Notes: a model not told the origin generated them from the letters alone. A stretch of 64,000 nucleotides of DNA from Planctomycetota bacterium (GCA_022705325.1 JAKJER010000004.1:129724-193723); one strand, 5' to 3'; positions 8,535 to 63,444 are shown, counted from the stretch's first letter. A program made the numbers and translations.

Positions 8535-8570
8535 TCCCCCGTCTCGCTGTGAAACCTGGAACGGCAGCAA

Positions 8571-9788: not shown

Positions 9789-10694
9789 GTGGCAACGGAC
9801 GCGATACGGCCATTCCGTCATGCTGAGCGGCGAGCGGCGTTCACGCTGGTCGAATTGTTGGTGGTGATTTCCATCATCGCCCTTCTGCTGAGCCTGCTGA
9901 CGCCCACGCTGTCGCGGGTCAAGGCCATGGGCCGTCGAACGCAGTGCCAGGCGAATCTCCGCCAGATCCATACCGCCGCCACCAGCTACCAGGCCATGTA
10001 CCGCGGGGCCCTGGTGTCCGTGCACCCGCCGGTCAAGATGCCTGAGGACGGCGGGGACGAGGCATGGGTCGAACCTCCACCCGGTTGGCAGCAGCGGCAT
10101 CCCAAGTGGCCCAACAACGACAAGTTCTGCGTCAACGACATGCTCCGACAGTTCGTCGGGGGCGGCACGCTGGAGATGGCGGGCACGTCCAAGCGCGGCA
10201 ACGAGGCCTTGTGGTACTGTCCCTCGGCCTTTGAGACAAACAACAGCGCCTGGAACCACCGCCGGCTCGACTACGGCCTCAACCACTACGGGCGGGGCAC
10301 CGGAGAAACGGGCAAGTACTGGGACTCCATGAGCGGGAAAATCGAGGGCAGAAGCAACGAGGGCAACTTCCCCAGGCACGCCAGCAACATCGGCCGGACG
10401 ACGGTCATCTGGTTCGCCGACGCCGAGAATGACACCAGTCCCGAGGACATCGGCGGCGTCTCTCGCGGCAAGCTGGCCGCCGAGGGCGGAGACCACTGGC
10501 CCCTCCAGGTCAGCTTCAACCTCTACGCGTACATCCGCCACCTGATGGGGTACAACGCCGTTCAGTTCGACGGCACGGCCGTCTGGCACGACGGCGAACG
10601 GATCGACCCGGACAAGCCCGAGTCTGAACGGGCCGAAGAGGCCAGGCTCCGGGTGGAGAAGTGGTTCATCTACAAACCGCGGGTCCAAGGCTGA
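9789..10694 (+). CDS. prepilin-type N-terminal cleavage/methylation domain protein (DUF1559-like pseudopilin)
   Basis: AFTLVELLVVISIIALLLSLL class-III signal/pilin motif. No in-frame ATG nearby, so a GTG start at 9789 is proposed (uncertain). Confidence 0.6.
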   Translation: MATDAIRPFRHAERRAAFTLVELLVVISIIALLLSLLTPTLSRVKAMGRRTQCQANLRQIHTAATSYQAMYRGALVSVHPPVKMPEDGGDEAWVEPPPGWQQRHPKWPNNDKFCVNDMLRQFVGGGTLEMAGTSKRGNEALWYCPSAFETNNSAWNHRRLDYGLNHYGRGTGETGKYWDSMSGKIEGRSNEGNFPRHASNIGRTTVIWFADAENDTSPEDIGGVSRGKLAAEGGDHWPLQVSFNLYAYIRHLMGYNAVQFDGTAVWHDGERIDPDKPESERAEEARLRVEKWFIYKPRVQG

Positions 10695-18446: not shown

Positions 18447-18539
18447 ATGGGCGTGCGTTCTGAGACAGTCCCGGCCGCCGATTGACTCGCGAAGGTCAAA
18501 CCAGGTTGGTTGCAGGCAGGTCTTCTGGCTTCCGGGTCA

Positions 18540-18682
18540 TCCTCTCGCCGCGCCTTCCCACCCGGACCACGCGTCCGGACAGTGGCTTTTGCGGCGGTCG
18601 TCGCCGGTTACAGCGGCGCGTCCGCGGCCGATTCACACGGCCTTCCCTTTTCGTCCGCCTGTAGCGGACAACCTGCAACGGC
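18540..18682 (-). ncRNA. cobalamin (AdoCbl) riboswitch aptamer
   Basis: Minus strand reads GUCCGC-UACAG-GCGGAC GAAAAGGGAAGGCCGUGUGAAUCGGCCGCGGACGCGCCGCUGUAACCGG ... AAAAGCCACUGUCCGG ... GGGUGGGAAGGCG. All core blocks are present in order: AAnAGGGAA, GGUGnGAAUCC, CCCGCnnCUGUAAnCGG, B12 box GCCACUG and GGGAAGGC. It lies 5' of the cobO-btuFCD operon. Confidence 0.7.
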
Positions 18683-18686
18683 AGTC

Positions 18687-18715
18687 ACTCTACAACCCGT
18701 CAAGCCGGGTGTCAA
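18687..18715 (-). promoter_or_regulatory. sigma70-type promoter for the riboswitch-cobO operon (TTGACA-17-TAGAGT)
   Basis: Minus strand: TTGACA (18715-18710), 17-nt spacer, TAGAGT (18692-18687). An AT-rich UP-like tract lies immediately upstream (18716-18750). Confidence 0.55.
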
Positions 18716-47944: not shown

Positions 47945-48442
47945 TCAGTTGGCCGTTGGACCGTCCAGCGTGTAGGTAACGCTGAGGGGCAGGGCGGCGA
48001 TGGCCCACGGTGCGGACTCGGCAGTGTCGAGACTGGGAGGAGCGAAGGCAACGGCGGGCATCGCGTGGCGTCCGTCGCCCCAGTCGCAGGCAGCGGCGGG
48101 GCGAGCCGCGCCGACGGCATTTCGGGCGGCGTTGGCCAGGCGGAGGATCTCTTGCAGGCGGGCCGACTCGTCCACGCCCGCGGGCACCTTGACGGCCAGC
48201 AGGACCTCCATTTCCACCCGGCAGGCCAGATGCTCGTCGGGAGTCGGCTGCTGGTGGGTCCCCAGGTAGCGGACGACGGCTGCGGGCGAGGTGCGGAAAT
48301 GGCACTCCCGGGCCTGCTGGGGCGAGGTGGTCAGCGCGACGGAGGCGAAGACGGCCTGGCCGCCGATGGCGGCGGAGGCCAAGGCGTCGCGGACGTCGGC
48401 CAGGATGGACCAGTCGGTATTGGCTACGGTGATGTCGGGCAT
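47945..48442 (-). CDS. hypothetical phage-like protein (165 aa)
   Basis: ATG at 48440-48442, preceded by a GGAG RBS and a structured leader. Confidence 0.5.
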   Translation of the reverse strand: MPDITVANTDWSILADVRDALASAAIGGQAVFASVALTTSPQQARECHFRTSPAAVVRYLGTHQQPTPDEHLACRVEMEVLLAVKVPAGVDESARLQEILRLANAARNAVGAARPAAACDWGDGRHAMPAVAFAPPSLDTAESAPWAIAALPLSVTYTLDGPTAN

Positions 48443-48563
48443 GGGAAACTCCGGGGATTTGCGATTGTCGATTTGCGATTGTCGATTGGGTTCGCTGGTC
48501 GGGGAGGGCCAATCGACAATCGAAGATCGTCAACCTGCCTGACGGCAGGCAGGTCGAGAATCT
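48443..48563 (-). repeat. structured intergenic element A: 2 x 14-nt tandem repeat + inverted copy + AACCTGCCTG hairpin
   Basis: ATTTGCGATTGTCG x2 (48457-48484); inverted partner CCAATCGACAATCG (48509-48522); hairpin ACCTGCCTG-ACGG-CAGGCAGGT (48533-48554). Confidence 0.55.
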
Positions 48564-49424
48564 CTACAGCCGTGTCACGTACCTGGCCCCGACGGAGCGT
48601 GCGTGGTCGGCTTGTCCGCCGGCGTCGGGGTCGCTGACGAGGGCGAGGTTCCAGGCGGCGATGGCTTCCTTGCGCTTGAGGTCGTGGTAGTCGCGAAGGC
48701 GGCTGTACATGGTGTCGTCGGCGCGTTCGTGGCAAGAGCCGAAGGCCAGCATGAGGGCCCAGTGGACGGCCGTCTCGCGGAGCTGATCGGGACTGGCCAG
48801 GCGGCGGAAGTCCGGGGTGGCTCGGCCGGCCGCGGGCCAGTTACGGTGCTCAGGCGCGCCGAACCCGCCGAGTTGGACGGCGTACTGCTGCGAGGCGGTC
48901 AGCAGGGTCTTGCGCGTGGCGGCGGCGCAGAACCGGGCCATGCCGGCCTGGGTCTCATACACGTCGCTGCCGAGTTGATCGAGGTTCTGGTACTCCTCCC
49001 GCAGGTGCTCATCGACGCAAAGGCAGACCAGAACGGGGACGCTCTGCTCGGGGTCGGCCACGTACCGTTCGAAGAAGAACTCCCCGGCCAGTCGGCTGGA
49101 GTTGACGCTCTGGAGAGTGCAACGGGCGGCGCGGGCGTCGAGGGTGGCCAGGTCGGCCGACCCGGAGGCGACCTGGTGCTCGGCGGCGCAGGCGGGGTCC
49201 TTGTAGAGCCGGACGGTTGCCTGGTCGCCCTCTCTGGTTGAGCGAAGGTAGAGCCAGCCGCCGTGTGTATTGCCCGAGTTGCGGGTGTCCAGCCCGGTAA
49301 GCGACCAGCGGGAGGTCTGGATCTCGTTGCGGTCTTCGTAAGCGTAGGCGTAATCGAAGGCCAGCGGAAGGTCCTGGGCCGGCCCGGACGACGCCGTCGC
49401 GAAGAACGTGAAGGTAGTGGTCAT
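48564..49424 (-). CDS. hypothetical phage-like structural protein (286 aa)
   Basis: Start MTTTFTFFATASS at 49422-49424. Confidence 0.5.
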   Translation of the reverse strand: MTTTFTFFATASSGPAQDLPLAFDYAYAYEDRNEIQTSRWSLTGLDTRNSGNTHGGWLYLRSTREGDQATVRLYKDPACAAEHQVASGSADLATLDARAARCTLQSVNSSRLAGEFFFERYVADPEQSVPVLVCLCVDEHLREEYQNLDQLGSDVYETQAGMARFCAAATRKTLLTASQQYAVQLGGFGAPEHRNWPAAGRATPDFRRLASPDQLRETAVHWALMLAFGSCHERADDTMYSRLRDYHDLKRKEAIAAWNLALVSDPDAGGQADHARSVGARYVTRL

Positions 49425-49438
49425 GGGCGGGTCCTTGT

Positions 49439-50428
49439 TTACGAGACGGCGATGGCTGCGGGGTTGGGGTCGAACTCGTAGCCGGCGAGCTGGCGGTGAC
49501 ACCAGTACGCACCGGCGTCGAGCTTGAAGGCGACCTGGCCCAGGGCGGTGGTGTACTTGGTGCCGGCGATGACGTTGCTGCCGGCCTGGTCGGTGGAAAT
49601 CCAGACGGCTGCCCCGTCCAGCGGGGTGCCCAGGTTGTCGGTGATGGTGATAGTGACGTCGAGGGCTCCGCTGCCGGTCAGGCCGCCGATCGACGCGACG
49701 GCGGTCGCAAGACCGTCCAACTCGTCATCGACCGATCCTCCAGCGGGTGCACCGGGCGAAGGGGCGAGCTTGAGGGCGTCGCGAACCTGCTGTGGCGTCA
49801 GGGCGCTGCCGCCGGCCGGGGCCTGCTCCAGGGCGTTCTCGGTCAGCCGATAGACCGCCCCGTCGGCCTCCAGGGCTGTATCCACCTTGTCCGTGACGGC
49901 CTTGACGGCCGCTACATCGTCGTTTGCCGGGGCGGTATAGTCAGCCGCCGCCAGGCGGGTGTTGACCTGCGTGTTACTGGCCGGATCGGCGGGGAGGTTG
50001 TCGGTCTTGGCCTTGATGGCGGCCACGTCCGAGTTGGCCGGCTCCGTGTAGTCCGCGTCGGCCAGCCGGCTGCCAACCGTGGCGTCGATGCGGCTCAGTC
50101 CGAGGGCGGCTGCGTCGTTCGGGTCGAAGGCGACGACCTGGACGCTCTCGCCTGGGCACTCGGCCGTGTTGGCGGACTTGTAACGTGTCTCGATGGACGT
50201 GCCTGCGGTCTCCACTGCCGACTGAGTCAGTTCGGCGTAGTATCGGCCGTTGCCGACAGAGACCAGCGTCCCAATTCCGGTGTCGGTCCAAGCTCCACCG
50301 TCAGAGGAAATCTGAGGCTGCCCGCTGGCTTCGCCAGTTTCGGGCGTGAGGCCGTCGGTTACGTCCACCAGGTGGAAGTACACTCGCCGGCGACTTGCGG
50401 TGGATTCATTTGCCTTGATGAGTTTCAT
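49439..50428 (-). CDS. fibre-like protein with internal sequence repeats (329 aa)
   Basis: Strong GGAGG RBS; ATG at 50426-50428; repeated ADYTxPANxDVAAxKAxTD units. Confidence 0.55.
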   Translation of the reverse strand: MKLIKANESTASRRRVYFHLVDVTDGLTPETGEASGQPQISSDGGAWTDTGIGTLVSVGNGRYYAELTQSAVETAGTSIETRYKSANTAECPGESVQVVAFDPNDAAALGLSRIDATVGSRLADADYTEPANSDVAAIKAKTDNLPADPASNTQVNTRLAAADYTAPANDDVAAVKAVTDKVDTALEADGAVYRLTENALEQAPAGGSALTPQQVRDALKLAPSPGAPAGGSVDDELDGLATAVASIGGLTGSGALDVTITITDNLGTPLDGAAVWISTDQAGSNVIAGTKYTTALGQVAFKLDAGAYWCHRQLAGYEFDPNPAAIAVS

Positions 50429-50430
50429 TG

Positions 50431-51273
50431 TCAAGCGTACCTCCGTCGGAGGATGTAACGGTTGAAGAAGAACGGGTAGGTGGAAGGCCCCACCGGGACG
50501 ATGAACACTCGCCGTGTGCTGAGCGTTCGCAGCATCCCCCATCGACGAGAGGGATGCCAGAGATCGTAGACCTCCGCGTCGGTGAGCACGCGGTTGTATA
50601 CTCGGACTTCGCCAAGTCTCCCAGCAAAGTACCGGCTGAACGAGCCGCCCCAGTACAGCATTCCGATGGACATGACCGTGGCGGCCGGCTCGTTGGTGGT
50701 TGACGCGTCTGTGCCTTTGGCTGAGCCGTTCAGCCAGGCGATGGAGGAGCCGTTGGCGTTGACAGCCCCGGTGGCCAATGCCCACTGCCCGGTGGGATAT
50801 GCCTGCATACTCTGGGCGGCTGAGGCGTTTGAGCCGTCATATACGCCCATTCTGACCGGGTCGCCTGCTGTGTCGCCCACAAGGTCAAGCGACATGATGG
50901 CCGTGCTGCTTGCGTAGGAGCTTTTGCCAAAAAGCACTTGGCGTGTAGTGCTGCTGGTGGAGTTGAACCAGGCCGAGATCGTGCAGCCCCGGTTGAAGAA
51001 CGGGGTGGCGATCTTGCTCAGTCTGTCGCTGCTTCCGTTGTACAGCGCGGAGCGACCGAATGTCCTGTCGCCCACCACGGATGGGTAGTCGCCGGAGTCG
51101 GTGATGGGATGTCGCCGCAACGCCAGGTCGGATGCCCCGCCAATGACGCTCGACGCCAACCAGAATGGGTAATAGGCAACCAGCCCGCGCGACTGCGGGT
51201 GGGACCAATCGACCGGCTGGGCCAGGTCGATCTGGTCGGCTCGCGGAGGCCCAGGATTGGTCCAGTCTCCCAT
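50431..51273 (-). CDS. LamG (concanavalin A-like lectin, Laminin_G_3) domain protein
   Basis: CTISAWFN...LFGK...GRLGEVRVYNRVLTDAEV matches the Laminin_G_3 signature (xISAWxK...G.IDEVRIYNRALS.EEI). Confidence 0.6.
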   Translation of the reverse strand: MGDWTNPGPPRADQIDLAQPVDWSHPQSRGLVAYYPFWLASSVIGGASDLALRRHPITDSGDYPSVVGDRTFGRSALYNGSSDRLSKIATPFFNRGCTISAWFNSTSSTTRQVLFGKSSYASSTAIMSLDLVGDTAGDPVRMGVYDGSNASAAQSMQAYPTGQWALATGAVNANGSSIAWLNGSAKGTDASTTNEPAATVMSIGMLYWGGSFSRYFAGRLGEVRVYNRVLTDAEVYDLWHPSRRWGMLRTLSTRRVFIVPVGPSTYPFFFNRYILRRRYA

Positions 51274-51275
51274 GA

Positions 51276-51737
51276 TTACGCCCCCGCGTCACTGTGAGGC
51301 GTGACGGTCAGTGCGTGGTCGCTTCCGGTTCCGCTCAAGGCTTGGCCGGTAGCGTCGTTGTAGACCACCAGGACCAGATAGCGGGCCTGTACGCGAACGT
51401 GGCAGGCCGCCACTTGACTGTCGGTGTCGGCGTCGGCCACCAGAGGCTTCAGTTCGTCCAGGTTGCGCAGGTCGTCCACGTCGCTGAAGGCCGCGTCCGA
51501 TCCGCTGCATCCGCCGGGATAGTTGGAGTTGGTCTCGCACCAGGCGGCAAACAGCCGCAGCAGCGTTCCGCTTGTGGGGGCCGAGGCCCACTTCGTCCGC
51601 AGGCGGATGAGTACCTCGGAGGCGTGGTTGGCTCCCAGGTCGATCAGCGTGGACTGGCGGGCCGAGCCGCTGGCCAGCGAGTCGAGCGTGATGGTCGCAG
51701 TTACGGGAGTGTCCTGGGTCTTGTAGAAGGTGGTCAT
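51276..51737 (-). CDS. hypothetical phage-like protein (153 aa)
   Basis: 4-nt overlap with the upstream gene. Confidence 0.45.
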   Translation of the reverse strand: MTTFYKTQDTPVTATITLDSLASGSARQSTLIDLGANHASEVLIRLRTKWASAPTSGTLLRLFAAWCETNSNYPGGCSGSDAAFSDVDDLRNLDELKPLVADADTDSQVAACHVRVQARYLVLVVYNDATGQALSGTGSDHALTVTPHSDAGA

Positions 51738-52183
51738 GATTTCGCAATCCTCCCATCAGGCCTGTCAGGCTTCAGGGCGTTGGAGATGTCGTTGACGGTC
51801 AGGCCAGGGAAGTCCCGCTCGGCGACGGAGCCGGGGCGGGTCTTGTTGGCGTTGATGCGGGCTCGGCTGGAAGGCTTGTCGGCGAGCACGATGTCGGCAA
51901 AGACAGCCGCACTGTCGCCCTGCATGTCCACCTGGCCGGCGATCAACAGAACGCTCAGGTGTTGGAGCTGCTGCGTGGAGAGGTCCATCCGCTCGGTCGG
52001 GTCGATCAGGGCGTCGAACTCGACGGCATCGACGCGGCCACGGGGGACTTGGATGTCGTCCCGTACGCGGCTGAGTTCGGTCAGGATGTCGGCGTCCCGC
52101 CCGAGCCGGGCGTGGTCGGCCAACTGCGGGTCGGCCTGGATCCGGAGACGCAGGCTCTGGGAGTCGGATTCAGTCAGGGGCAT
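51734..52183 (-). CDS. hypothetical phage-like protein (149 aa)
   Basis: ATG at 52181-52183 (MPLTESDSQ). The upstream Arg/Pro-rich extension of the track ORF is rejected. Confidence 0.45.
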   Translation of the reverse strand: MPLTESDSQSLRLRIQADPQLADHARLGRDADILTELSRVRDDIQVPRGRVDAVEFDALIDPTERMDLSTQQLQHLSVLLIAGQVDMQGDSAAVFADIVLADKPSSRARINANKTRPGSVAERDFPGLTVNDISNALKPDRPDGRIAKS

Positions 52184-52227
52184 GATAGTCCTCGATGTTC
52201 GAGTGCAAGGTCGGTCCGCCGCCGGCA

Positions 52228-53169
52228 TCAGCGGCCGGTGCGAAGGCGATGCGGGGCGAGCAGTCCGGCGAGCAGGGCGGGGTCGGCGAGTTCCTTTGTG
52301 CTGAACTGTCTGCACGCCAGGTGGAAGAGGTAGTTTCGTACGGCCGCCGGCGCCTGGTCTTCGCTGGGGCCGAGGTCGCCGTCGGCCATGGAGGCCAGCG
52401 CCCGAGGCAGGTCCGCCAGCGAGCAGCGCCGGGCGACGCGTGCAATGGTGTAGGAAGCGGGGCCGAGGGCCAGAAGCGGACACCCGGCGGCCAGGGCCTC
52501 GTTGCCCGAGTTGGAGTTGATGGTGACGGCGAAGCGAGCGCCCGCCAGCGCGTCCTGGAGGGACCCGTCGATCACCCGGGCCCTTCCGGTCCAGCCGAAC
52601 CGCCAACTCGAGCTGGGATGGACGCGTACGCGGATGTCCAGGTCGCAGGGGGAGGCGTCCTGGACGGCCTGCACCAGGGGCAAAGGGTGATGCAACTCGC
52701 AGCCGTCGAGTTGGCTGTCGCAGGCGACCTGGAGCAGCAGGAGCAGGTAGCCGTGGCGGCGCGAGCGAAGCGGCTGGGGCAGACGCCCGTAGGAGCCGAC
52801 GAAACGGGCCTGGCCCTCCGGCGGGGCCGGGGCACGGAGGATGTCTTGGCGGGCCCACGAGGCGGTGTGACTGAAGCCCTGCGGGTCGAGTTGCGTGAAG
52901 CGATAGCGATCGAAGAAGCCGCGTTCCATGACGATCACGTGCAGGCCGCGGCGGCGGGCGTCGGCGGCGACCTGGCCCCAGAAGCCCTTTCGGCCGTTCC
53001 ACAGAAACAAGGCTTCGGGCAGTTCGGAGAAGCCGCCCAGGCGGCAATCGGCGCTGGGAGCGAGTACCTGCACCGAGTGGCCCAGGACCTCCAGACCCGC
53101 CTTCAACGAGGCGAACGGCTCTTCGGGGTTGGCGAAGCGGCGGTTGTCGCAGAGGATTCCGACTCGCAT
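52228..53169 (-). CDS. Capsule_synth (KpsC/KpsS/LpsZ-like) family glycosyltransferase-like protein
   Basis: C-terminal FAVTINSNSGNEALAAGCPLLALG resembles the conserved Capsule_synth GT-B motif (V.T.NST.G.EAL..GKPV). ATG at 53167-53169. Confidence 0.45.
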   Translation of the reverse strand: MRVGILCDNRRFANPEEPFASLKAGLEVLGHSVQVLAPSADCRLGGFSELPEALFLWNGRKGFWGQVAADARRRGLHVIVMERGFFDRYRFTQLDPQGFSHTASWARQDILRAPAPPEGQARFVGSYGRLPQPLRSRRHGYLLLLLQVACDSQLDGCELHHPLPLVQAVQDASPCDLDIRVRVHPSSSWRFGWTGRARVIDGSLQDALAGARFAVTINSNSGNEALAAGCPLLALGPASYTIARVARRCSLADLPRALASMADGDLGPSEDQAPAAVRNYLFHLACRQFSTKELADPALLAGLLAPHRLRTGR

Positions 53170-53855
53170 GATGGTCCTGTCAGATGGGTGTAGTGAGTGG
53201 CCGTGACGGCTTGAAGGCGGCTTCGGGGCGAGAGGTTCCACAGATGCCCGCCGAGCTGGCGCACGGCCCGTGCGGCGGCGGCGAACTGCTCCTCGACGCT
53301 CGCAGGCGGCGGGCGGTCGTATTGACCCTGCCAGCCCTCTTCGGCATGGTCATAGGGGCTGACCATCCGCGGGTGGCCGCCGTGGTAATCCAGACCCAGG
53401 AAGTAGATGCGCCGGCAGCCCTGGAAGAACGCCCAGTTGGCGGCCATCAGGCAGACGGACGAGTTGGCCAGGACGGCGGCCTCGCGGTTCTCGTCCAGGA
53501 CGGGCCGCTCCTGCCACGGGCCGTCGAAACGGAGGAACTGGTCGCAGTGGGTCACGCGGCGGTCGGCGGGTCCGACCTTCCAGGCCGGGCAGGGCTTCCA
53601 AAGCTCCTCGTGGTACCGGATGCCCCATTTCTGCTCGTGCCAGAGGTTGCGATAGGTGTCGCGGATGACCATGGCGTGGAGCGTCGCGCGGCGGAGGGCG
53701 GCGAAGGCCAGGCAACGGTTGGTGCCGACGATCAGGAGATCAGGGACCCTTCGCAGTGCGGACCAGAACGCCGGCGGCACCGAGTCGATGGACGGCCCGT
53801 TGCCCAGGACGAGGGCGACCTGGCCCGCGGGCGGCTGTCTGCTCGTGTGGGGCAT
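53103..53855 (-). CDS. GT42/DUF115 (CstII-sialyltransferase / Maf / MptE-like) family protein
   Basis: LVLGNGPSIDSV, LLIVGTNRCLAF and NSSVCLMAANWAFFQGCRRIYFLGLDY parallel CstII IAGNGPSL, DVFRCNQF and SGVYMCAVAIALGYKEIYLSGIDFY. 67-nt overlap with the downstream gene. Confidence 0.5.
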   Translation of the reverse strand: MPHTSRQPPAGQVALVLGNGPSIDSVPPAFWSALRRVPDLLIVGTNRCLAFAALRRATLHAMVIRDTYRNLWHEQKWGIRYHEELWKPCPAWKVGPADRRVTHCDQFLRFDGPWQERPVLDENREAAVLANSSVCLMAANWAFFQGCRRIYFLGLDYHGGHPRMVSPYDHAEEGWQGQYDRPPPASVEEQFAAAARAVRQLGGHLWNLSPRSRLQAVTATHYTHLTGPSCESESSATTAASPTPKSRSPR

Positions 53856-54069
53856 GGAGTCTGTTCTCGACGGCAAATGAGACCCCCGGGGGCCGCCCGG
53901 GCCACGGACAGGGAGGCACAAAGGCGGACGCGAAGCGGCGTCGTTCTCCTGTCCGTAGCTGCCGGGCGGCGAGGGGGAAGGAGCGATTCCCCCGGGCGGG
54001 TTCACGATTTCACGGGTCGTCGGACGGTCGAGAACTCATGCGACTCGTCCTTTATCCGTGGATTTCGTG

Positions 54070-55116
54070 CTACACGCTGGCGTTGAAGACGCCCTTGACG
54101 ATCTTGAGCTGGCGGTGATCGTCGTAGTCCTCGTCCCAGTTGGAGGCGGTGGCCAGCTCGGCGTCGGTGGGGTTGTCGGTGGCCGACGCCCACTTCATGC
54201 CGTAGACCTCGTACTCCACGTCGAAGTCCTCGCGGACGTAGGACATGCTGGACTGCTTGAGGATGTCCCGCTGCAGTTCGATGCCCTGGTCGTAGAGGAT
54301 GGTGGCGCCCAGCGAGCCCACGCCCAGGCCCAGCACGACGTATTCGGCGTAGTAGCTGCTGGTGAGGGCGGAGATCAGGGCCGGGGCGTCGCAGACGATG
54401 ACGCGGCGCCCGAAGGCCTGGACCACGTCCTGGTAGATCGTGGCGCCGGCGACGCGGTCGAACTGGTAGTTGCCGATCGAGTCGCCCACCAGGTCGGCGA
54501 AGACGGCCGAGGGCATCACGAAGGCGGCGATGTCCTCGCGGGCGTCGGACATCTTGGCCAGCAGGAGGTTGAGGTGCGCCATCGTGGCGGTGACCTTGGC
54601 CCCGGCGGTCTTGCCCCGGGCGACGTCCAGGATGTGGGCGTCGGCGGCAGGCGTGTCGGCGGAGTCGACGGCCGCCACGGCCGCCGCCAGCAGGTTGTTG
54701 CGGATGCGCAGCAGCTTGTTGTCGGCGAACTGCTGGCCGAGGTTGACCATGGCGGAGGTCATGTCGAACTTCCGCCCGGCCTTGCGGGCCTGGATGTCGG
54801 TGATGCTGACCGGCCCGCAGCCGAGGGTCTGGCGGACGAGCTTGCCGCCGGTCATCTCGAGCTTCTTGACGTCGACGGCGTCGCCGGGGTTGGCGTTGTC
54901 GCGCCGCCCGATCAGGTCGCTGATGGGCTTCCAGCGGGCGGTGTCGGTGAAGTCGCCGCCGGCGGCCATCTGCCGCGCGGGGTCGCTCTCCAGCACGAGG
55001 GTGCCGCCGCTGGCGGCGTTGAACAGGTCGATCTTCTCCACGGTGCGGCGGTATTCCTCCGCGCGCAGCGTGTCTTTGTAGACCATGTCGGAGGGGGCTC
55101 CGTACTCGGTAGTCAT
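54070..55116 (-). CDS. putative major capsid protein (348 aa)
   Basis: Lies immediately after the scaffold-like genes and portal; the size is typical. An unusual low-GC 215-nt leader lies upstream. No family motif could be confirmed by eye. Confidence 0.45.
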   Translation of the reverse strand: MTTEYGAPSDMVYKDTLRAEEYRRTVEKIDLFNAASGGTLVLESDPARQMAAGGDFTDTARWKPISDLIGRRDNANPGDAVDVKKLEMTGGKLVRQTLGCGPVSITDIQARKAGRKFDMTSAMVNLGQQFADNKLLRIRNNLLAAAVAAVDSADTPAADAHILDVARGKTAGAKVTATMAHLNLLLAKMSDAREDIAAFVMPSAVFADLVGDSIGNYQFDRVAGATIYQDVVQAFGRRVIVCDAPALISALTSSYYAEYVVLGLGVGSLGATILYDQGIELQRDILKQSSMSYVREDFDVEYEVYGMKWASATDNPTDAELATASNWDEDYDDHRQLKIVKGVFNASV

Positions 55117-55332
55117 AGGATTCCTTTCGGTTGGGGAAGGTTTGGTTTCGAGACGCGGGTGGGCGTGCTGCCCGGGGTGGGACCAGCAGGCTCTCTATCA
55201 CCAAGCTCACCGAGGCCACTACGATCAGAAAGGAAAAAGAAAGAGATCACGATGTCTTTGTGTTCTCTATCTTCTTTCTTCTTGAGCTTTGCGAGCTTTG
55301 TGCTCTTTGTGATTTGAGCTGCTTGCCGAGGA

Positions 55333-56154
55333 TCAGGACTGGCGCCGCTGCGCCAGTTGGAGATAGGCGGCCGGGCCATGGCGGGCGATGAACTCGGCCT
55401 TGGCCCGCGGGTCGCGGTCGAGCGTGCGGATGTCGACGGCCGGCGGCGCCGTGAACCCGCCGTGGGCGCCGCTGCCGGTGTCGTGCGAGGGCGGCAGGAA
55501 GTGGCTGCCTTCCCGGGCGAGCCAGTCGGCCACGAAGTTGCGGACGCTCACGGGCGACTCGTCAGCCGGGTCAAGCTGGACCGCTCCGTTCTCGTCGAGC
55601 ACGCGGACGGCGGGCTTGTCGTCGTCAAGCTCGACGCGGATCCGCGGGCCCAGCAGGGCGGCCGCCTGCGCGAGCATCCGCTCGCCGTTGGCGCAGCCGC
55701 GTCCGACGCCGCAGGCGGCGAGCGTCTTGTGCAGTTCGCTCAGGCCGGCCAGTTCGCGGACGGCGGCGGTCAGCCGCTCGATGCGGGCGTCCTTGACGGC
55801 CAGGTCGTCGGCGGCCAGGCGCAGACGCTGGTACTCCTCGTGCTGCTCGGGCGGCAGGGCCCGCGGACGGAGCTGTTCCAACTCGCCCTCGGCCTTCTGC
55901 GCCCGCTGACGATACTTACGGCTCTGCCCGGCCTCGCGCAGGTACTCCGCCTTCCAGTCGCGGTCGGCGGCGTCGCCGGGGCGATCGGCGCCGGGCGGTT
56001 CGTCAGCCGGCGGCTCCGCGGCTGCAGCCGCGTCGTCGGTTGCGGTGGATGCCGCCCCTCCGGGCGGCGGATCGTCGGCGGCGAAGAACACCCGGAATTC
56101 TTGCGGACGACGGAGACGGGGAGTTTCGAACCTGCTACGGTAGGATGGGATCAT
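55333..56154 (-). CDS. scaffolding-like coiled-coil protein (paralog 2)
   Basis: Ala/Glu/Arg/Leu-rich predicted coiled coil. Its C-terminal LDRDPRAKAEFIARHGPAAYLQLA is shared with 56213-56791. Confidence 0.45.
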   Translation of the reverse strand: MIPSYRSRFETPRLRRPQEFRVFFAADDPPPGGAASTATDDAAAAAEPPADEPPGADRPGDAADRDWKAEYLREAGQSRKYRQRAQKAEGELEQLRPRALPPEQHEEYQRLRLAADDLAVKDARIERLTAAVRELAGLSELHKTLAACGVGRGCANGERMLAQAAALLGPRIRVELDDDKPAVRVLDENGAVQLDPADESPVSVRNFVADWLAREGSHFLPPSHDTGSGAHGGFTAPPAVDIRTLDRDPRAKAEFIARHGPAAYLQLAQRRQS

Positions 56155-56212
56155 CGGCTTTCCTGTCAATGCACTGGGTTTCGAGTCTCTCTATGGCGGG
56201 CAGGTGTCTCAG

Positions 56213-56791
56213 TCACTTGCTCTTTGCTCTGGCCCTGGCGGCGAGGTCGATGAAGGCAGCGCTGCCGTGTCGGGCGATGAACTGGGCCTTGCGCGCGGGG
56301 TCGCGGTCGAGGGCGGTCAGCAGTTCGACGGGATCGACCTGGTCGACGTCGGCGGCCCCGTTGACGACGGCCCGGGCCTGACGCTGGCTGGCGCTGCGCT
56401 GGAGCGACTGGCGGAGCAGCGGGTTGTCCTGCACCTCGCGCAGGAGGAACTCGGTGGGGTTGGGCTCGATGCGGACCTCGCCGTCGCCCGCGACCCGGCA
56501 CTGGAAGCGGTGAGCGTACGCGGCGGCCGCCTGGCTGGACAGGCCGACGTTGGCGGCTGCCTGGGCCAGGGCCTGGTTCAGCGCCGCGGCCGCGTAGTGG
56601 GTGCGGAGGGCGGCGTTGTCCCGCTCGGCCTGATCGAGCAGGTCGCGCTGGGCGCTGGCGTCCTGGACGGCGGCCAGCAGCTCGTCCACGCGGGCCTGGA
56701 GGTGGGCGTTTTCCTGCTGGAGGGCGGCCAGCGTGTCGGCGTCGGCGGGGGCGTCGGGGGCAGCGGCGGCAGGGGGAGACGTTTCGGACAT
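56213..56791 (-). CDS. scaffolding-like coiled-coil protein (paralog 1)
   Basis: LAALQQENAHLQARVDELLAAVQDA coiled coil; C-terminal LDRDPARKAQFIARHGSAAFIDLA. ATG at 56789-56791. Confidence 0.45.
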   Translation of the reverse strand: MSETSPPAAAAPDAPADADTLAALQQENAHLQARVDELLAAVQDASAQRDLLDQAERDNAALRTHYAAAALNQALAQAAANVGLSSQAAAAYAHRFQCRVAGDGEVRIEPNPTEFLLREVQDNPLLRQSLQRSASQRQARAVVNGAADVDQVDPVELLTALDRDPARKAQFIARHGSAAFIDLAARARAKSK

Positions 56792-56889
56792 AGCGGTTCC
56801 TTTGGCTGGGCGGAGACTGTGTGGCAAGGGGCGGTTCCGTGAAGACGCAAGCGTTTCGGAGGGTCAAGGAGCGGCGGACGACAGAGCCG

Positions 56890-58341
56890 CTAAGACTGGA
56901 AGCTCGCGTTCTCGATCTGTGCCAGGGCGTCGGCGTACGCCTTGTCGTCCTCGCCGGCCAGGGCGTCGAGGACCTTACGGAGCAGGATCTTCAGCAGGGC
57001 CGGAGCGCCGCCGTTGCGGTGCAGGCCCATGGAGACCAGTTCGCGTGCCTGGGCGATCAACTCGTCAGCGCCGGTGAGCACGTACTTCTTGTTGTACTCC
57101 ACGTCATAGCGGACCTGCTCGACGGGCACGCGTTGGCCCTTGTAGCGGCAGACGGCCAGGTGGATCAGTTCCCGCTCGACCTGTTCGAGATGGACGGCGG
57201 TCATGCGCATCTCGTTGTCGAGATCGGTCCGCTCGACGGCGACCTGGACGCCGGAGGTCGCCCGGCCGCGGAGTTCGCCGGCGGCGCCGGTGAGCTTGCC
57301 GATGCGGAGGATCGCCTCCACAAGGGTGCGGGCCAGTTCGATCTTGGCCTGGATGTGGGCCACGTCGCCGCTGATGTTGTGGATCTGCGAGCCGGCGGGC
57401 AGTGCCCAGCAGCCCATGGGCGTGATCTCGGCGGGGATCTTGTCCGCCTCGACGCCGGTGGCGACCAGGAAGGCGATGTTGCGGTAGACGTCGATCTGGA
57501 CCTGCGAGAGCAGGTTGAGCAAGTAGCGGGCGATCGGCGCGATCCGCGTCAGCAGCGACAGCGGGACCTTTGGGTAGTCGCTCCGCACCGACTCCTTGTA
57601 GTAGAACGGCACGACGGGGCAGCGACCCAGGGCGATGGGGCCGCTGGCCACGGTGACCGAGCGGTCTTCGCCCTCGCCGCTGACGCGATAGAGGCGCCAC
57701 TGGTCGCCCGTCAGCGTGAGGTAGCGTCGCTCGCCCGAGGTCGCGTGCGTCTCGTCGTCGGCGGGGGCGGCGCCCAGGTCGTATCGGACCCAGCGGTATC
57801 CTCCACCGTGGTCGCAGGCCCAGTCGAGCCGCTCCAGCGGCCCGAAGGCGTGCAGGTAGGGCAGCAGGCCGAGGCTGCGCTCCTGGGCCAGCGTGAGCGG
57901 CGCCGCCCCGGCCGGGGGCGACTGCTTGTCTACGACGAAGTCCACGCCGTTGACGTAATGCATGACCAGGGCCCGCCGCATGAAGGCGTCGATAGGCGTT
58001 CCGGCGCCGTCGACGTTGCGGAGGAACTCGGCCAGGAAGTCGGCGAAGGGCGAGTCGTCGAACCGCCTGGCGGGCGGGGTGCGGAAGAGGTTGTCCACGC
58101 GGAGGTGGATGAGTTCGCAGCAGGGGTCCAGGGCGAGGGCGGCGTTGCGGCGCCAGGCGTACTGGGCGGGCGGTTCGCCGGCCTGCTCGCCCCCGGAGCC
58201 GAAGGCGTCCAGGTACCGCCCGCCGCGGAGCACGTGCAGGTGCATCTCGGCGAAATCGCGATTGAGTTCCCAGGCCGGACGGAACTGCTCGTACAGCGGG
58301 TGTGCGGCGGCAGGGTCGAAGTCGGTGGGGTGTGCGGTCAT
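56890..58341 (-). CDS. putative portal protein (483 aa)
   Basis: Immediately downstream of the large terminase; portal-like size. Assigned by synteny. Confidence 0.45.
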   Translation of the reverse strand: MTAHPTDFDPAAAHPLYEQFRPAWELNRDFAEMHLHVLRGGRYLDAFGSGGEQAGEPPAQYAWRRNAALALDPCCELIHLRVDNLFRTPPARRFDDSPFADFLAEFLRNVDGAGTPIDAFMRRALVMHYVNGVDFVVDKQSPPAGAAPLTLAQERSLGLLPYLHAFGPLERLDWACDHGGGYRWVRYDLGAAPADDETHATSGERRYLTLTGDQWRLYRVSGEGEDRSVTVASGPIALGRCPVVPFYYKESVRSDYPKVPLSLLTRIAPIARYLLNLLSQVQIDVYRNIAFLVATGVEADKIPAEITPMGCWALPAGSQIHNISGDVAHIQAKIELARTLVEAILRIGKLTGAAGELRGRATSGVQVAVERTDLDNEMRMTAVHLEQVERELIHLAVCRYKGQRVPVEQVRYDVEYNKKYVLTGADELIAQARELVSMGLHRNGGAPALLKILLRKVLDALAGEDDKAYADALAQIENASFQS

Positions 58342-58469
58342 GGAGACTCCTGAATTGCGGAATGCGGATTGCGGAATGCGGAATTCGGCATCGGACCACG
58401 GATTGCGGCGCTGCGAACCTGCCTGCCTTTGGGCAGGTTGCGGAATTCGGAATCCGCATCCGCGGTCAG
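58342..58469 (-). repeat. structured intergenic element B: 2 x 14-nt tandem repeat + AACCTGCCTG hairpin + inverted copy
   Basis: ATTGCGGAATGCGG x2 (58354-58381); hairpin AACCTGCC-N8-GGCAGGTT (58416-58439); inverted imperfect copy (58441-58465). Same architecture as 48443-48563. Confidence 0.55.
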
Positions 58470-59894
58470 TTACGACATCCCCAGCCGCACGACGCCGATG
58501 GCGCTGCTGCGCCGCCGATTGACGTAGAAGTATCGCAAGGCGTCGGGAATGTGCTCGTGCTCCTGGGGGTCCTGGGGCTCGTCGATGTACACGCCGTTCA
58601 CGCGGCGGTTGCGATAGTTGAGCATCGCCTGGACGAACGGTCGATTGCCGCCGTGGTCCACGTAGAACAGCGTGGGCGGTCCGGCCGCCGGACGCAGTGC
58701 CGCCCGCACAAGCTGGATGCCGTTGCGGACCTCGCGGGCCTCAGGCGCCAGGGTGTATGTGCACGGGATGCCGGCCTGGGCGAAGGCCTCGATGGCGCTC
58801 AGGCCCGTCTGGTCGTTGCGGTTCCGTCCGGCCGGGTCGCAGTAGGTGGCGGCGACGTCGCTGAGCCGATGCCCGTGGATGTACGCCGCGTGCCGCCCCA
58901 GCGTGGCGTTCTCGGCCTGGTAGGTGTCCAGCACGGTTACGTTGCCCTGTTTGTCCTCTCCCAGCCACAGGCAGACGAAGGTCGCGACGCCCCAGTCAAT
59001 GGCCCGGTAGACCGTCAGAGTCTCTCCGGCACGGGGCAGGGCGTGGACCTGCGGGTCGAAGGCCGCATACACCAGCCCGCGAGCGGTGGGGCGGGCGCAT
59101 TCGTACTCGGCCCGCCAGGTGTCGATGTCCAGCTTGCTGAAGGCCTTGATGGCGTCGTCGATGGCCAGCAGGCCCTCGGCCTCGGCGGCGATTCCCAACA
59201 GGCGGTCCGGGTCGCCGTGGCGCTCGCGAGACTTGGCCAGGCAGGGTTTTCCCAGCGGGCAGTCTCGACAACCCGCGCCGTTGTCGTGTCGTTCGGGCGG
59301 GCACCTCTCGATGACCTCCCAGACGTTCCACTTGTGCAGTTTCACGCCGTTGGCGGGGCGGTTGTCGATGAGCTTGCCCATCAGCCCGCCGCTGCGGTGC
59401 CAGGTGGAGGTATAGACGGTTCGGGCCGGGCGGCCGGGCGAGGAAGCGAGCATCCCGACGGCGGCGCGGTCGATCTCCGGATCGATCTCGTCCAGTTCGT
59501 CCTCGAAAAGGCGGTGGACCTTGGGCCCGCGGACGGCGGCCTGGCTGGCGGCGACGATCTCCATTCGTCCGCCGCCCACCTCGGTGCGGGTTCGGCGGAG
59601 CAGCGGGCGACGCTCGCTCAGCGCGGTGGTGCACCAGCGTTTCCAGTACTCGTAGAGCGTGCCGGCCTGCGCCTGGCTGCCCGAGAGCACCCGGGCCTCC
59701 AGGCCGTCGGTCCGCGAGAACTCGCAGGCCGCGATGACGGACGCCGAGAGCGTCTTGAGCCCCGAGCGGCAGGCCCAGGCGGCCATGTCCTGATGCGAGT
59801 TGGTGATCGCGTCGGCGACGAAGCGAAGCGGCGTGCTGTGGCCGGGCGTGAATGACTTGTCGGGCAGCACCAGGTCGAAGTGGGTCCGGAGCAT
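58470..59894 (-). CDS. phage terminase large subunit
   Basis: ATPase region with VHRLFEDELDEIDPE (Walker-B-like acidic block) and a C-terminal RNaseH-like nuclease region (YCDPAG...D). N-terminal start uncertain (59894 vs 59999). Confidence 0.7.
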   Translation of the reverse strand: MLRTHFDLVLPDKSFTPGHSTPLRFVADAITNSHQDMAAWACRSGLKTLSASVIAACEFSRTDGLEARVLSGSQAQAGTLYEYWKRWCTTALSERRPLLRRTRTEVGGGRMEIVAASQAAVRGPKVHRLFEDELDEIDPEIDRAAVGMLASSPGRPARTVYTSTWHRSGGLMGKLIDNRPANGVKLHKWNVWEVIERCPPERHDNGAGCRDCPLGKPCLAKSRERHGDPDRLLGIAAEAEGLLAIDDAIKAFSKLDIDTWRAEYECARPTARGLVYAAFDPQVHALPRAGETLTVYRAIDWGVATFVCLWLGEDKQGNVTVLDTYQAENATLGRHAAYIHGHRLSDVAATYCDPAGRNRNDQTGLSAIEAFAQAGIPCTYTLAPEAREVRNGIQLVRAALRPAAGPPTLFYVDHGGNRPFVQAMLNYRNRRVNGVYIDEPQDPQEHEHIPDALRYFYVNRRRSSAIGVVRLGMS

Positions 59895-59988
59895 CCTGCA
59901 AAGCGGCCGGAGGTCCGGCCGCGAGGGCTCGCCTTTCGCGCTCGACCGCTCTGCCCGATCGGGGGCCGGTTGGCAGCGGGTCCTGGGC

Positions 59989-60420
59989 TTACTCATCATC
60001 GGGTGGCTCGATGGGCATGGCCTTGAGGCGCTCGCGGACGTTCTGGAGGTGGCGCCGCAGGCTCAACTCCGACGGGTCATCGCTCGGACCGGGATCGTCC
60101 GTGTCGGGGCCGGGAGGGAAGAGCTGGAGCAGGAACTCGCGGCACTTGCGGCCGAGTTCGCCCTTGTCCTCCTTGCCCACCTGAAAATGGTCGAGGATCA
60201 GTTCCTCCCGCAGACCCTTGCCCAGGCGGGCCGTTTCCGCGTCGGCCAGCCGTCTCATCTGGTCCAAACGTTGTTTGAATGCCGGCCGGCGCTGGCCGTT
60301 CACGAGCGCCACCAGGTTCTTGTACGTCATGTTGTGCTTCGCGGCTATCTGCCTGAGCGGCAGCCTGGCCGAGACCAGGTCGCAGATCAACTCGTCGTCG
60401 TTATAGTAGCTCCGTCTCAT
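59989..60420 (-). CDS. small HTH protein (terminase small subunit candidate), paralog B
   Basis: ATG at 60418-60420. PLRQIAAKHNMTYKNLVALVNGQRRP HTH is a paralog of 60417-60839; acidic C-terminus. Confidence 0.45.
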   Translation of the reverse strand: MRRSYYNDDELICDLVSARLPLRQIAAKHNMTYKNLVALVNGQRRPAFKQRLDQMRRLADAETARLGKGLREELILDHFQVGKEDKGELGRKCREFLLQLFPPGPDTDDPGPSDDPSELSLRRHLQNVRERLKAMPIEPPDDE

Positions 60421-60839
60421 GCGTTTCCCTCGTGGCTGATCGTTCGTGAAAGAATGTACTCGCGCGATCTTCCGGCCGCGCGGGAGGAGCCCGTCCGGAT
60501 GATCCGCATGTGGCGGCGGAAGGCGGCCAGGGCTTTGCGCCGGACAAGAGCCCGCAGGCGGTTGTCGAGTGTGCGGCGGGCCTTGCGGATGTCCCGCTGG
60601 AGGTGAGGACGGCGCTGGCCCGCGGCGATCTTGTTGACCAGTTCGACCGAAACGCCCAACTCGCGGGCGATCTCGGCGGTCGGTCGGCGCCTTCGAGCCA
60701 GTTCGAAGACCAGGACGGCCTCGTCGTACGCTTTGCGCTGGGGGACCACTGGCCGATCCTTGGGCGTTTCGGGGTTCAGATGCTTTGCCTTTCCCGCATC
60801 GGGGGCTGCCGTTGTTTGTCCCTCCCGTGGTAAGGACAT
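60417..60839 (-). CDS. small HTH protein (terminase small subunit or regulator candidate), paralog A
   Basis: ATG at 60837-60839. PTAEIARELGVSVELVNKIAAGQRRP HTH. It is the first gene of the cluster. Confidence 0.45.
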   Translation of the reverse strand: MSLPREGQTTAAPDAGKAKHLNPETPKDRPVVPQRKAYDEAVLVFELARRRRPTAEIARELGVSVELVNKIAAGQRRPHLQRDIRKARRTLDNRLRALVRRKALAAFRRHMRIIRTGSSRAAGRSREYILSRTISHEGNA

Positions 60840-61123
60840 TTCGAAGGGCGTTTTGTGGCAACAAAATCCGAGCGAAAGACTAGATCGGCATAAAATGCTT
60901 TCATTTAAGGCGTTATGAACGAAGAAAAACTTCGTTCTGAGCGGTTTTTCCATCCAGGCAGTGCGCGGGCCGAATCTGGGTTACGGTACTTGCCCGACTT
61001 CGCTCATCAGGACTGCCCGACAAGACAGCCGTTCTTTGCGGCGGGAAGACTTGAGCGTTCTTTTCAGTTGTCAAGAGGCCTGCCAGAACTGACAATCGTC
61101 TGCCGCCTCCGTGCGCAAGGGAT

Positions 61124-63115: not shown

Positions 63116-63248
63116 CCCCAAGCGGAAGTGAGGGCGGTGCGTCAGGAGTCGCGTACGACAGTGGATCGGCTTATCATCCATGCGGAGAACATATCGCCAT
63201 CGTCCGAGTCAGGTCAAGGCGACTTGCGAGCGGCGGGAGGGCGCCTAT

Positions 63249-63406
63249 CAGTCCGTTGAAAAAGGCCGCCCAACGTAGCATGGGCGTCTCGCCCATGTGT
63301 ACCACGGGCATCTTGCCCGTGGAATTGTCCGAAAGACAGCAACTCCCACGGCCGGGACGGCCGTGGCACACGGGCAAGATGCCCGTGCTACTTTTCCAAC
63401 GGACTG
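63249..63406. repeat. composite nested palindromic element (REP/MITE-like or structured RNA)
   Basis: Outer IR CAGTCCGTTGAAAAAG / CTTTTCCAACGGACTG; inner palindromes CATGGGCGTCTCGCCCATG, CACGGGCATCTTGCCCGTG, CCACGGCCG-GGA-CGGCCGTGG and CACGGGCAAGATGCCCGTG. Confidence 0.5.
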
Positions 63407-63444
63407 CTATGCGGCCCGAGGCGAGTCCGGCCTTCAGGAAGCGC

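Follow-up and report, generated by a model that had tools for sequence, protein, structure and literature searches.

Heptamer foldbacks and a dispersed 20-bp palindrome in intergenic spacers of a Planctomycetota phage-type operon

We analyzed two intergenic regions, E1 (48443-48563) and E2 (58342-58469), that lie among the phage structural genes of a 64,000-nucleotide stretch from a Planctomycetota bacterium (GCA_022705325.1 JAKJER010000004.1:129724-193723). This whole stretch is called the window below, and positions count from its first letter. Both spacers appear to combine two modules: a 7-nt tandem array with an inverted partner array, which we call a foldback, and a copy of a discrete 20-bp palindrome, PAL-20, whose copies are spread over Planctomycetota, many viral contigs and at least one contig of Patescibacteria. 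Both modules are real and recurrent, they change faster than the genes on either side, and most homologous junctions lack them. The explanation that we favor, with moderate confidence, is that E1 and E2 arose when small, repetitive DNA able to form hairpins was inserted, in this lineage specifically, at prophage operon junctions, and that they are tolerated because the mRNA folds shut. Effects on mRNA stability, processing and translation are plausible, and any regulatory role is hypothetical.

The first-pass annotation of this DNA had described, in each of the two spacers, a 14-nt unit repeated twice in tandem, an inverted copy of that unit and a hairpin on a shared 10-mer, all immediately 5' of GGAG or AGGAG and a gene start. 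Tandem Repeats Finder (TRF) recovered the 14-nt tandems with 100% match in both (2.3 copies at 48456-48487 in E1, 2.1 copies at 58354-58382 in E2), but the true period is 7 nt, with CGATTGT repeated 3.9 times at 48462-48488 and TGCGGAA 4.7 times at 58356-58388. The inverted copies are present as the 5' arms listed in Table 1, and the position before a ribosome-binding site (RBS) and start codon was borne out, with all genes concerned on the minus strand. E1 separates two conserved unnamed genes (312-aa and 165-aa) and reads, in mRNA order, TAG, GC-rich hairpin, 14-nt 5' arm, 19-nt loop, ~4.5 heptamers, GGAG and ATG. E2 runs from the stop of the terminase large subunit gene (TerL) to the portal start, in the order TerL TAA, 5' arm, GC-rich hairpin, spacer, ~4.7 heptamers, AGGAG and portal ATG. 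Since the 3' array of E1 is longer than its 5' arm, two pairing registers are possible, one with 25-nt inverted arms (88%) and the other with 21-nt arms (86%). Compared with shuffled controls, the minus-strand RNA of E1 folds at -50.7 kcal/mol (z = -5.4) and that of E2 at -53.7 kcal/mol (z = -3.15).

The shared 10-mer, AACCTGCCTG, is found exactly in the window only at 48532 and 58416; allowing one mismatch raises the count to 10, where 4.07 would be expected and none of the shuffles got that high. It proved to be part of a larger unit, the 20-bp perfect palindrome PAL-20, CCTGCCTRCCGGYAGGCAGG, which E1 matches at 19/20 positions and E2 at 16/20; in E2 the hairpin AACCTGCC...GGCAGGTT at 58416-58439 consists of the palindrome copy and its flanks. 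The 64 kb contain two 19/20 copies, in E1 and at 2442-2461 in the host region (0.00 expected), besides the 16/20 copy of E2. Outside the window, exact PAL-20 occurs in 57 copies in 48 viral stretches and in at least 120 metagenome stretches, with up to 6 copies in one 29.5-kb viral contig; one related locus, L020, holds three copies of the pattern and one shorter relative. No occurrence of the sequence was found in the literature searched.

Among the matches listed, viral and metagenome contigs with a GC content of 29-71% provide 184 distinct PAL-20 contexts. Within these listed matches, the palindromic symmetry ends at exactly 20 nt in 141 of the 184 contexts, no flank consensus emerged across the 184, and at low-GC loci the palindrome falls mostly outside long open frames (67% versus 21% for random positions). 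The same listed matches associate PAL-20 with 7-nt arrays: an array lies within 150 nt in 33/187 PAL-20 windows compared to 215/5027 random windows (odds ratio 4.8, p = 2e-11), and PAL-20 interrupts heptamer arrays in phase in 9/179 contexts compared to 33/8950 controls. In locus L083 (2239-2330) the palindrome sits in the variable loop of a tRNA-Met(CAT) of 92 nt, which without exactly 20 nt is a canonical 72-nt tRNA. The PAL-20 insertions showed no target duplication, and removing exactly 20 nt restores both the phase of the arrays and the tRNA loop. Judged from these sequences, PAL-20 behaves like a discrete insertion unit.

One low-GC PAL-20 contig belongs to Patescibacteria according to its AspRS and is the only contig with an established taxonomy; further contigs carry housekeeping genes (ProRS, Mur ligase, FtsK or NuoL). 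The presence of the palindrome in other phyla speaks against its being a phage signal, and the host-region copies at 2442 and 8222-8606 show that the repeats of the window are not phage-specific. A cyanobacterial origin of the PAL-20 loci was rejected on a HIP1 density of only 0.014 per kb. A high-density spread like that of repetitive extragenic palindromic (REP) elements gained no support from the matches listed, where most stretches have a single copy.

Several further PAL-20 contexts were seen. The palindrome apparently lies in the D-loop of a tRNA fragment in L094 (~490-560), L054 (~8570-8660) resembles a truncated copy of the L083 tRNA with its PAL-20, and L069 (~270-380) has two copies ahead of a T-arm. 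In L077, L078, L107 and L179 it adjoins or sits inside a widespread small hairpin repeat, CTCCCCTCTCC…GGAGAGGG…GGGGTGAGG; in L179 PAL-20 splits the hairpin loop of that repeat, and in L107 the hairpin is intact and PAL-20 follows. The half-site AACCTGCC occurs as a direct tandem, AACCTGCCAACCTGCC, in L005 (4738) and L038 (1464); in both, a GGTGAGA/GGTTAGA foldback occupies the TerL-portal junction and has this tandem at its 3' end. An exact PAL-20 is flanked by the E2 unit (AATCCGC/TTCCGCA) in L166 (~90-330) and L125 (~3090-3180), two unrelated metagenome contigs of 48% and 71% GC, and L166 also has an inverted array downstream, which makes it a near-replica of the E2 layout.

Heptamer arrays were followed in portal-anchored loci and their close relatives from genome, viral and metagenome collections, which after redundancy removal comprised 45 sequences and 597 kb. 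Gene models in the high-GC loci are approximate, and homology-based gene calls across loci are distorted by conserved out-of-frame open reading frames (ORFs) in high-GC DNA; element context was judged by local stop, RBS and start criteria. Seven was the commonest tandem-array period in the 597 kb (53 arrays), and an inverted partner lay within 400 nt of 34/55 period-7 arrays (62%), compared to 5/33 period-6 arrays (15%). One layout is common to about 30 elements: the stop codon is followed by a 5' array, a centre that varies and measures 10-150 nt, a 3' array complementary to the first, the RBS and the ATG, and the predicted stems have 14-40 bp. On the operon strand the elements begin ~0-40 nt (median ~11) past the stop and end ~13-35 nt before the ATG, and a plausible RBS with a start follows within 80 nt in 25/38 elements on that strand versus 7/38 on the other. 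The unit itself varies by element (GGCAACA, GGTGAGA, CGCTGAGGA, GTAGCCG, AGGCTGG, AATTGCA, GAATGGAT, CTATAGGTC). The same unit may serve several junctions of a single phage (L004, GGCAACA twice; L009, CGCTGAGGA twice; L019; L022), distant phages have GTAGCCG, AATCCGC, CTATAGGTC and AGGCTGG in common, and GTAGCCG also occurs in the host part of the window (8222-8606). The description of a family of structured intergenic elements inside a phage operon is supported: the operon includes TerL, portal, scaffold and major capsid protein (MCP) genes, the elements stop just short of a strong RBS, and relatives show the same architecture. Both spacers that had been counted are real, and a third, E3, lies at 55117-55332.

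Two related loci contain additional repeat structures. In L019 (12929-13209) a heptamer foldback with arms CAATGGA and ACTGTCA encloses ~4 tandem copies of a ~24-nt unit, each copy a hairpin (CCCGGCGCGCCGGG). L008 carries the same hairpin repeat (…GGGACAGTCCCCATTTTCGCT…) at its TerL-portal (~2400-2560) and E1-equivalent (10353-10521) junctions, which suggests that genome-specific dispersed hairpin families exist besides heptamer arrays.

Comparison of homologous junctions showed how quickly the spacers change. E2 is kept, with substitutions and a 7-nt array indel, in L026, an independent metagenome contig whose portal is 99% identical in amino acids. In L027 (portal 90% in amino acids, coding DNA 89% in nucleotides) and in L025 (portal 80% in amino acids) the spacer cannot be aligned to that of the window, and the RBS and ATG do align. 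Unalignable spacers were thus found between phages whose coding DNA is 89% and ~78% identical, so the conservation in homologous clusters that the first-pass annotation had proposed as a check is missing. After its portal gene, L027 has a hairpin of the 9-mer CTATAGGTC, at a place where an unrelated spacer is found in the window and in L026. At the E1-homologous junction, 15/18 relatives have spacers of 9-52 nt without long hairpins, and two others, L008 and L050, carry long hairpins of unrelated sequence at this junction. TerL-portal junctions, read by eye, have some array or hairpin in ~13/22 cases and little or no spacer in 9/22. Between close relatives, spacers are replaced wholesale and precisely at gene boundaries. 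From the unalignable or short spacers of the relatives, we take E1 and E2 to be inserts specific to their lineage and not conserved signals.

A chance likeness of two low-complexity spacers, or an assembly artefact, could be suspected in so far as the window contributes only two elements, with different units and an imperfect hairpin in E2. We regard it as highly improbable: no shuffle reached the observed counts, the tandems are perfect, the architecture recurs in dozens of independent assemblies, L026 shows E2 with natural substitutions, and PAL-20 variants include G:U and compensatory forms.

More serious is the possibility of adaptive RNA structures that act in cis in the late operon, that is, RNase III or other processing sites, 3' stabilisers or coupling devices. 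In the coupling version, a terminating ribosome would melt the base of the structure and free or approach the next Shine-Dalgarno (SD) sequence, with array copy number as a tuning knob. We consider this account rather unlikely, although it is in keeping with the stable folds of E1, E2 and E3 (E3, z = -2.5), with the way in which elements fill the spacer from shortly past the stop almost to the ATG, and with the proposal that heptamer repeats upstream of starts are translational regulators (PMC4679880; bioRxiv 10.1101/2022.06.06.494920). The location of the elements on the operon strand, with co-directional genes on both sides, is likewise a point for a transcription-related constraint.

Several observations weigh against the reading of E1 and E2 as tolerated insertions, and the first three of them are also points for selected RNA structures. 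In the window alone, E1, E2 and E3 can each pair stop-proximal sequence with the next SD, with energies for the three spacers of -9.0, -12.4 and -8.0 kcal/mol. In 25/32 elements the 5' arm is purine- and G-rich and the 3' arm pyrimidine-rich (Wilcoxon p = 1e-4; several of the 32 are mutually homologous, and the statistics overstate their independence), which argues that the elements are not neutral toward transcription. At a homologous junction of L015 and L022 the arms are ~93% identical, with one A-T to G-C double (compensatory) change, around a 130-nt centre that cannot be aligned, and this could reflect selection on the stem. As for the insertion process itself, Pfam scans of ORFs from part of the window and from PAL-rich viral contigs revealed no mobilising enzyme or transposase, only phage structural and packaging genes or nothing, and no target-site duplication was found.

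Other data point away from the RNA. Minimum free energies (MFE) of sense and antisense strands showed no systematic difference, and arm mismatches displayed no excess of sense-strand wobble, with 33 G:U versus 57 A:C. Because the energies are alike and the G:U excess is lacking, arm matching looks like a DNA-level property. The first-pass annotation had suggested searching for compensatory changes, and this search gave the one pair at L015/L022 and no G:U excess. Complementarity between stop-proximal sequence and SD in 21 elements averaged -5.7 kcal/mol, no better than the -5.6 to -6.4 kcal/mol of three controls (p > 0.6), and a general coupling helix between stop region and SD was rejected on this result. 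Rfam 15 gave nothing at gathering score in E1 or E2; at E <= 1 its only match was a miRNA precursor in E1, at chance level (E = 0.5, 24 bits versus a gathering score of 79). Neither spacer has a terminator-like site, the region-wide count of such sites equals the shuffle expectation, and an RBS, not a T run, follows the stems. No sigma-70-type promoter (-35/-10, 16-18 nt) was found in E1 or E2 in a scan confined to that promoter type, with Planctomycete types outside it. The G:U counts, the MFE comparison, the stop:SD test and the lack of Rfam, promoter or terminator matches argue against long-term selection on RNA structure. The RNA account is further opposed by the absence of the element from most homologous junctions, its outright replacement between close relatives, and the presence of the same building blocks outside operons and in a tRNA.

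It had also been suggested that the spacers may be late-gene regulatory or processing sites. That interpretation is unsupported, because homologous clusters do not conserve the sequences, most relatives have a short E1 junction, neither promoter-like or terminator-like sites nor an Rfam family were recognized in E1 or E2, the building blocks occur in the host too, and the palindrome is also present in other phyla. RNase cleavage and translational control may be consequences of the hairpins. The alternative suggestion of recombination sites of a modular element comes closer to the evidence, which indicates small inserted or mobile repeat DNA.

DNA-level sites were considered as well, either arrays and palindromes bound by phage or host proteins (stoperator-like repressor roadblocks, nucleoid proteins) or short 'linker' homologies, shared at gene boundaries, that promote exchange of phage modules. 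The recurrence of one unit at several junctions of one phage (L004, L009, L019, L022), the units shared by distant phages, the near-perfect DNA palindromes formed by the arms and the wholesale spacer swaps at exact gene boundaries would all agree with such sites. We nevertheless find them improbable, as the units of E1 and E2 differ, and the one motif in common, PAL-20, is present in host and Patescibacteria chromosomes too; the units are too diverse for a single binding protein, no candidate protein was identified, and symmetric DNA sites do not predict an orientation bias relative to transcription. In mycobacteriophages of cluster A, stoperators are one asymmetric 13-14 bp motif with many copies per genome in one orientation. 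Stoperator-like sites were rejected, given the differing E1 and E2 units and a sole shared motif that is symmetric and also occurs in the host and in unrelated genomes.

The insertion reading leads to the following model. Arrays would grow and shrink through replication slippage of 7-nt units, and intrastrand template switching or gene conversion, working on the DNA itself, would create the inverted arm and preserve its match. PAL-20 may have arrived as a 20-bp insertion. The spacer would be co-transcribed with the operon and would fold shut, which would keep the upstream stop codon spatially within a few nucleotides of the next RBS, with the G-poor arm adjoining the RBS. Selection would act mainly as a filter on the inserts that are tolerated. 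Likely side effects on the mRNA would be a barrier to exonucleases, possibly a substrate for RNase III, and a translation of the next cistron that could be tuned through unit number.

A bolder extension can be offered only tentatively. PAL-20 (CCTGCCTGCCGGCAGGCAGG) might be a mobile palindrome that, at 20 bp, would rank with the smallest known mobile DNAs and that crosses phyla (Planctomycetota, Patescibacteria and their viruses), inserts without target duplication and prefers hairpin loops and heptamer arrays. The foldbacks built of heptamers, whose tandem-repeat arms are conserved and whose variable centre sometimes includes a small ORF, might in turn be the prokaryotic and phage counterpart of foldback transposons, and the two together might form an undescribed repeat ecosystem that remodels phage operon junctions and tunes cistron expression.

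That bacterial spacers are over-supplied with 7-nt tandem repeats was noticed decades ago, with no accepted origin or function (PMC4692102, PMC4679880). The present locus unites heptamer arrays and the arrays inverted to them with a 20-bp palindrome of sharp boundaries that is unchanged across genomes of 29-71% GC, and close relatives of the phage operon supply junctions 'before and after'. Two questions are thereby made testable: how such repeats originate and spread (slippage and template switching versus enzyme-driven insertion), and whether the intercistronic hairpins alter mRNA processing or the relative output of structural genes. For annotation, the locus warns that its conspicuous hairpins are not conserved regulatory sites and that PAL-20 can inflate or break tRNA calls.

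Table 1. Features of the window, with their positions and the basis of each call
Feature	Positions	Strand	Basis or remark
E1 5' arm, mRNA sense CGATTGTCGATTGG	48509-48522	-	sequence, fold, inverted-repeat finder
E1 3' array, ~4.5 heptamers, mRNA sense CAATCGA/CAAATCG	48456-48489	-	TRF; inverted pairs I5, I23
E1 copy of PAL-20, 19/20	48534-48553	.	10 nt past stop codon; 0.00 expected by chance
GGAG ribosome-binding site (48449-48452) and ATG (48440-48442) of 165-aa gene	48440-48452	-	sequence
E2 5' arm, mRNA sense GCGGATGCGGATTCCGAATTCCGC, complementary to part of 3' array	58440-58463	-	sequence; fold
E2 copy of PAL-20 (CCTGCCTGCCGGCAGGCAGG), degenerate, 16/20	58418-58437	.	sequence comparison
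E2 3' array, ~4.7 heptamers, mRNA sense TTCCGCA/ATCCGCA	58353-58388	-	TRF
AGGAG ribosome-binding site (58347-58351) and portal ATG (58339-58341)	58339-58351	-	sequence
E3, third structured spacer, scaffold stop to MCP ATG	55117-55332	-	long imperfect hairpin
Host-region foldback: GTAGCCG array (8222-8250) and inverted copy (8573-8606)	8222-8606	-	brackets 94-aa ORF 8252-8534
Host-region PAL-20 copy, 19/20	2442-2461	.	spacer, ~31 nt upstream of gene start
Terminase large subunit gene (TerL-like)	58470-59999	-	phrog_5653, 4.4e-08; TAA stop 58470-58472, directly upstream of E2
Portal protein gene, downstream of E2	56890-58341	-	phrog_145, 4.5e-34
Scaffold-like gene	55333-56169	-	phrog_206
Major capsid protein (MCP) gene	54070-55116	-	PF20036, 2.8e-48
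312-aa structural-module gene, function unknown, conserved	48564-49502	-	homologues in 22 related loci; TAG stop 48564-48566, upstream of E1
165-aa gene downstream of E1	47945-48442	-	homologues in 18 loci
Cobalamin riboswitch	18498-18691	-	RF00174, 114.9 bits, E = 4.5e-28

The window has a GC content of ~67%. Its phage structural genes around E1 and E2 (TerL, portal, scaffold, MCP) are on the minus strand, and the genes flanking E1 had no match in Pfam, PHROG or PDB sequences. Since the remainder of the window has cellular content, with carB, genes for a PfkB kinase and an N-methyl pilin-like product, and the cobalamin riboswitch, the structural module is a prophage or phage-derived cluster in a Planctomycetota chromosome. 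Portal homologues came solely from Planctomycetota/Phycisphaerae metagenome-assembled genomes (MAGs) and unnamed metagenome contigs. Upstream of the module, a low-GC (46%) non-coding stretch at 60815-61100 lies between divergent ORFs and includes, at 61068-61096 on the plus strand, one of two sigma-70-like matches in the scanned region; it may be the control region of the operon.

E3 has a purine-rich 5' arm with CACAAAG/GCAAAG repeats and a pyrimidine-rich (U-rich) 3' arm, and folds at -67.9 kcal/mol; its unit, CTTTGTG/CACAAAG, was found again in L022. In the host region, the GTAGCCG array (8222-8250) of the foldback at 8222-8606 abuts the stop of a plus-strand gene and its inverted copy the stop of a minus-strand gene. 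The 94-aa ORF between them (minus strand) is lower in GC and has no Pfam match, and the whole looks like a foldback with cargo. The gene downstream of the PAL-20 copy at 2442-2461 encodes an N-terminus, MTTSRNAITRRDSF..., that by eye resembles a twin-arginine signal, and a hairpin, GGCAAGCCC...GGGCTTGCC, precedes that copy. A nested intergenic structure at 63239-63416 (minus strand) has 26-nt arms (85%) around two copies of the self-palindromic CACGGGCAAGATGCCCGTG, with arms of 23 nt at 96%; it contains further small hairpins and has no heptamer periodicity.

The elements were also compared with known repeat classes. With a 7-nt tandem unit in a non-coding spacer, E1 and E2 are of the type of heptameric intergenic simple sequence repeats (SSR) or short tandemly repeated repetitive (STRR) sequences. 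STRR1-3 have the units CCCCAGT, TTGGTCA and CAACAGT and reside in heterocystous cyanobacteria; membership in them was rejected, as the units here are CGATTGT and TGCGGAA and the portal homologues are Planctomycetota/Phycisphaerae, not cyanobacterial. With regard to MITEs (miniature transposable elements that end in inverted repeats), inverted arms are present, and no parent insertion sequence (IS) was seen among the scanned ORFs. No gene for a REP-associated tyrosine transposase (RAYT; Y1 transposase) was found among the Pfam-scanned ORFs, which cover part of the window only. PAL-20 is like the small dispersed repeats (SDRs) in being a discrete unit with a sharp 20-nt boundary that occurs in a tRNA-Met variable loop and in heptamer arrays.

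Eukaryotic Foldback (FB) transposons have long inverted arms of short tandem repeats and a variable centre with possible cargo, a plan to which 8222-8606, with its ORF between the arms, is similar. Here the domain of life and the size scale are different, and no transposase or target-site duplication was found. The RNase III hairpins of phage T7 lie between cistrons and are conserved, with characteristic internal loops and no tandem units; the spacers described here are like them in that long stems are predicted between the cistrons of a polycistronic phage mRNA, immediately before the next RBS. An RNase III site takes at least ~20 bp of dsRNA, and the stems predicted here have 14-40 bp. SDR4-6 of Nostocaceae, which Elhai and colleagues are said to have described in 2008, are reportedly units of 21-27 nt that act as insertions into conserved sequence, in hairpin and repeat contexts, through a mobilising mechanism said to be unknown. 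PAL-20, unlike these, is a 20-bp perfect palindrome of other sequence in Planctomycetota, Patescibacteria and viral contigs. The 2008 article of Elhai and colleagues (Genome Res 18:1484) is cited in PMC3116915 and PMC5861425.

REP sequences and REPINs are short dispersed extragenic palindromes, often between co-directional genes, that are associated with RAYT transposases (Bertels and Rainey 2011, PMC3116915), and their transcripts form hairpins able to stabilise upstream mRNA (PMC3116915). Neither a RAYT gene, among the Pfam-scanned ORFs, nor REPIN-type doublets were seen here, and PAL-20 is conserved across phyla, whereas REPs are lineage-specific. TAACTGA heptamers occur as direct repeats upstream of start codons (MacGregor 2015, PMC4679880) and other heptamer repeats lie near start codons in Nostoc (bioRxiv 10.1101/2022.06.06.494920); for both, a post-transcriptional role through binding of S1, Csp or CsrA has been proposed (PMC4679880; bioRxiv 10.1101/2022.06.06.494920). 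The arrays studied here similarly end a few nucleotides upstream of the RBS and start and have a patchy spread across phyla. However, those repeats are single-unit families, nearly always direct and with no inverted partner, whereas the present arrays differ in their unit and are usually sequestered by a complementary arm.

The closest likeness in unit length and placement is to the intergenic 7-nt arrays known as STRR in cyanobacteria, GGGAATC in Xanthomonas and GGGGAYT in Nostoc (Rehm et al. 2015, PMC4692102), of which the cyanobacterial STRR heptamers are credited there to Mazel et al. 1990 (as cited in PMC4692102). In Xanthomonas, 70-75 cases per genome pair two arrays convergently, so that stem-loops are possible; array length and sequence vary much at the same junction between close relatives, the function is unknown, and polymerase slippage has been proposed (PMC4692102). 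Our elements share with these arrays the 7-nt tandem units, the strongly intergenic and sometimes intra-operon location, the inverted pairs and the rapid variation. They differ in that many units coexist, even in one phage, and are mostly not G-quadruplex (G4)-forming, and in that the arrays, in Planctomycetota and their phages, bracket whole intercistronic spacers with a 5'-purine/3'-pyrimidine bias. What goes beyond these precedents is the multi-unit vocabulary, the Planctomycetota-phage setting, the orientation bias, and the cross-phylum PAL-20 with its association with heptamer arrays.

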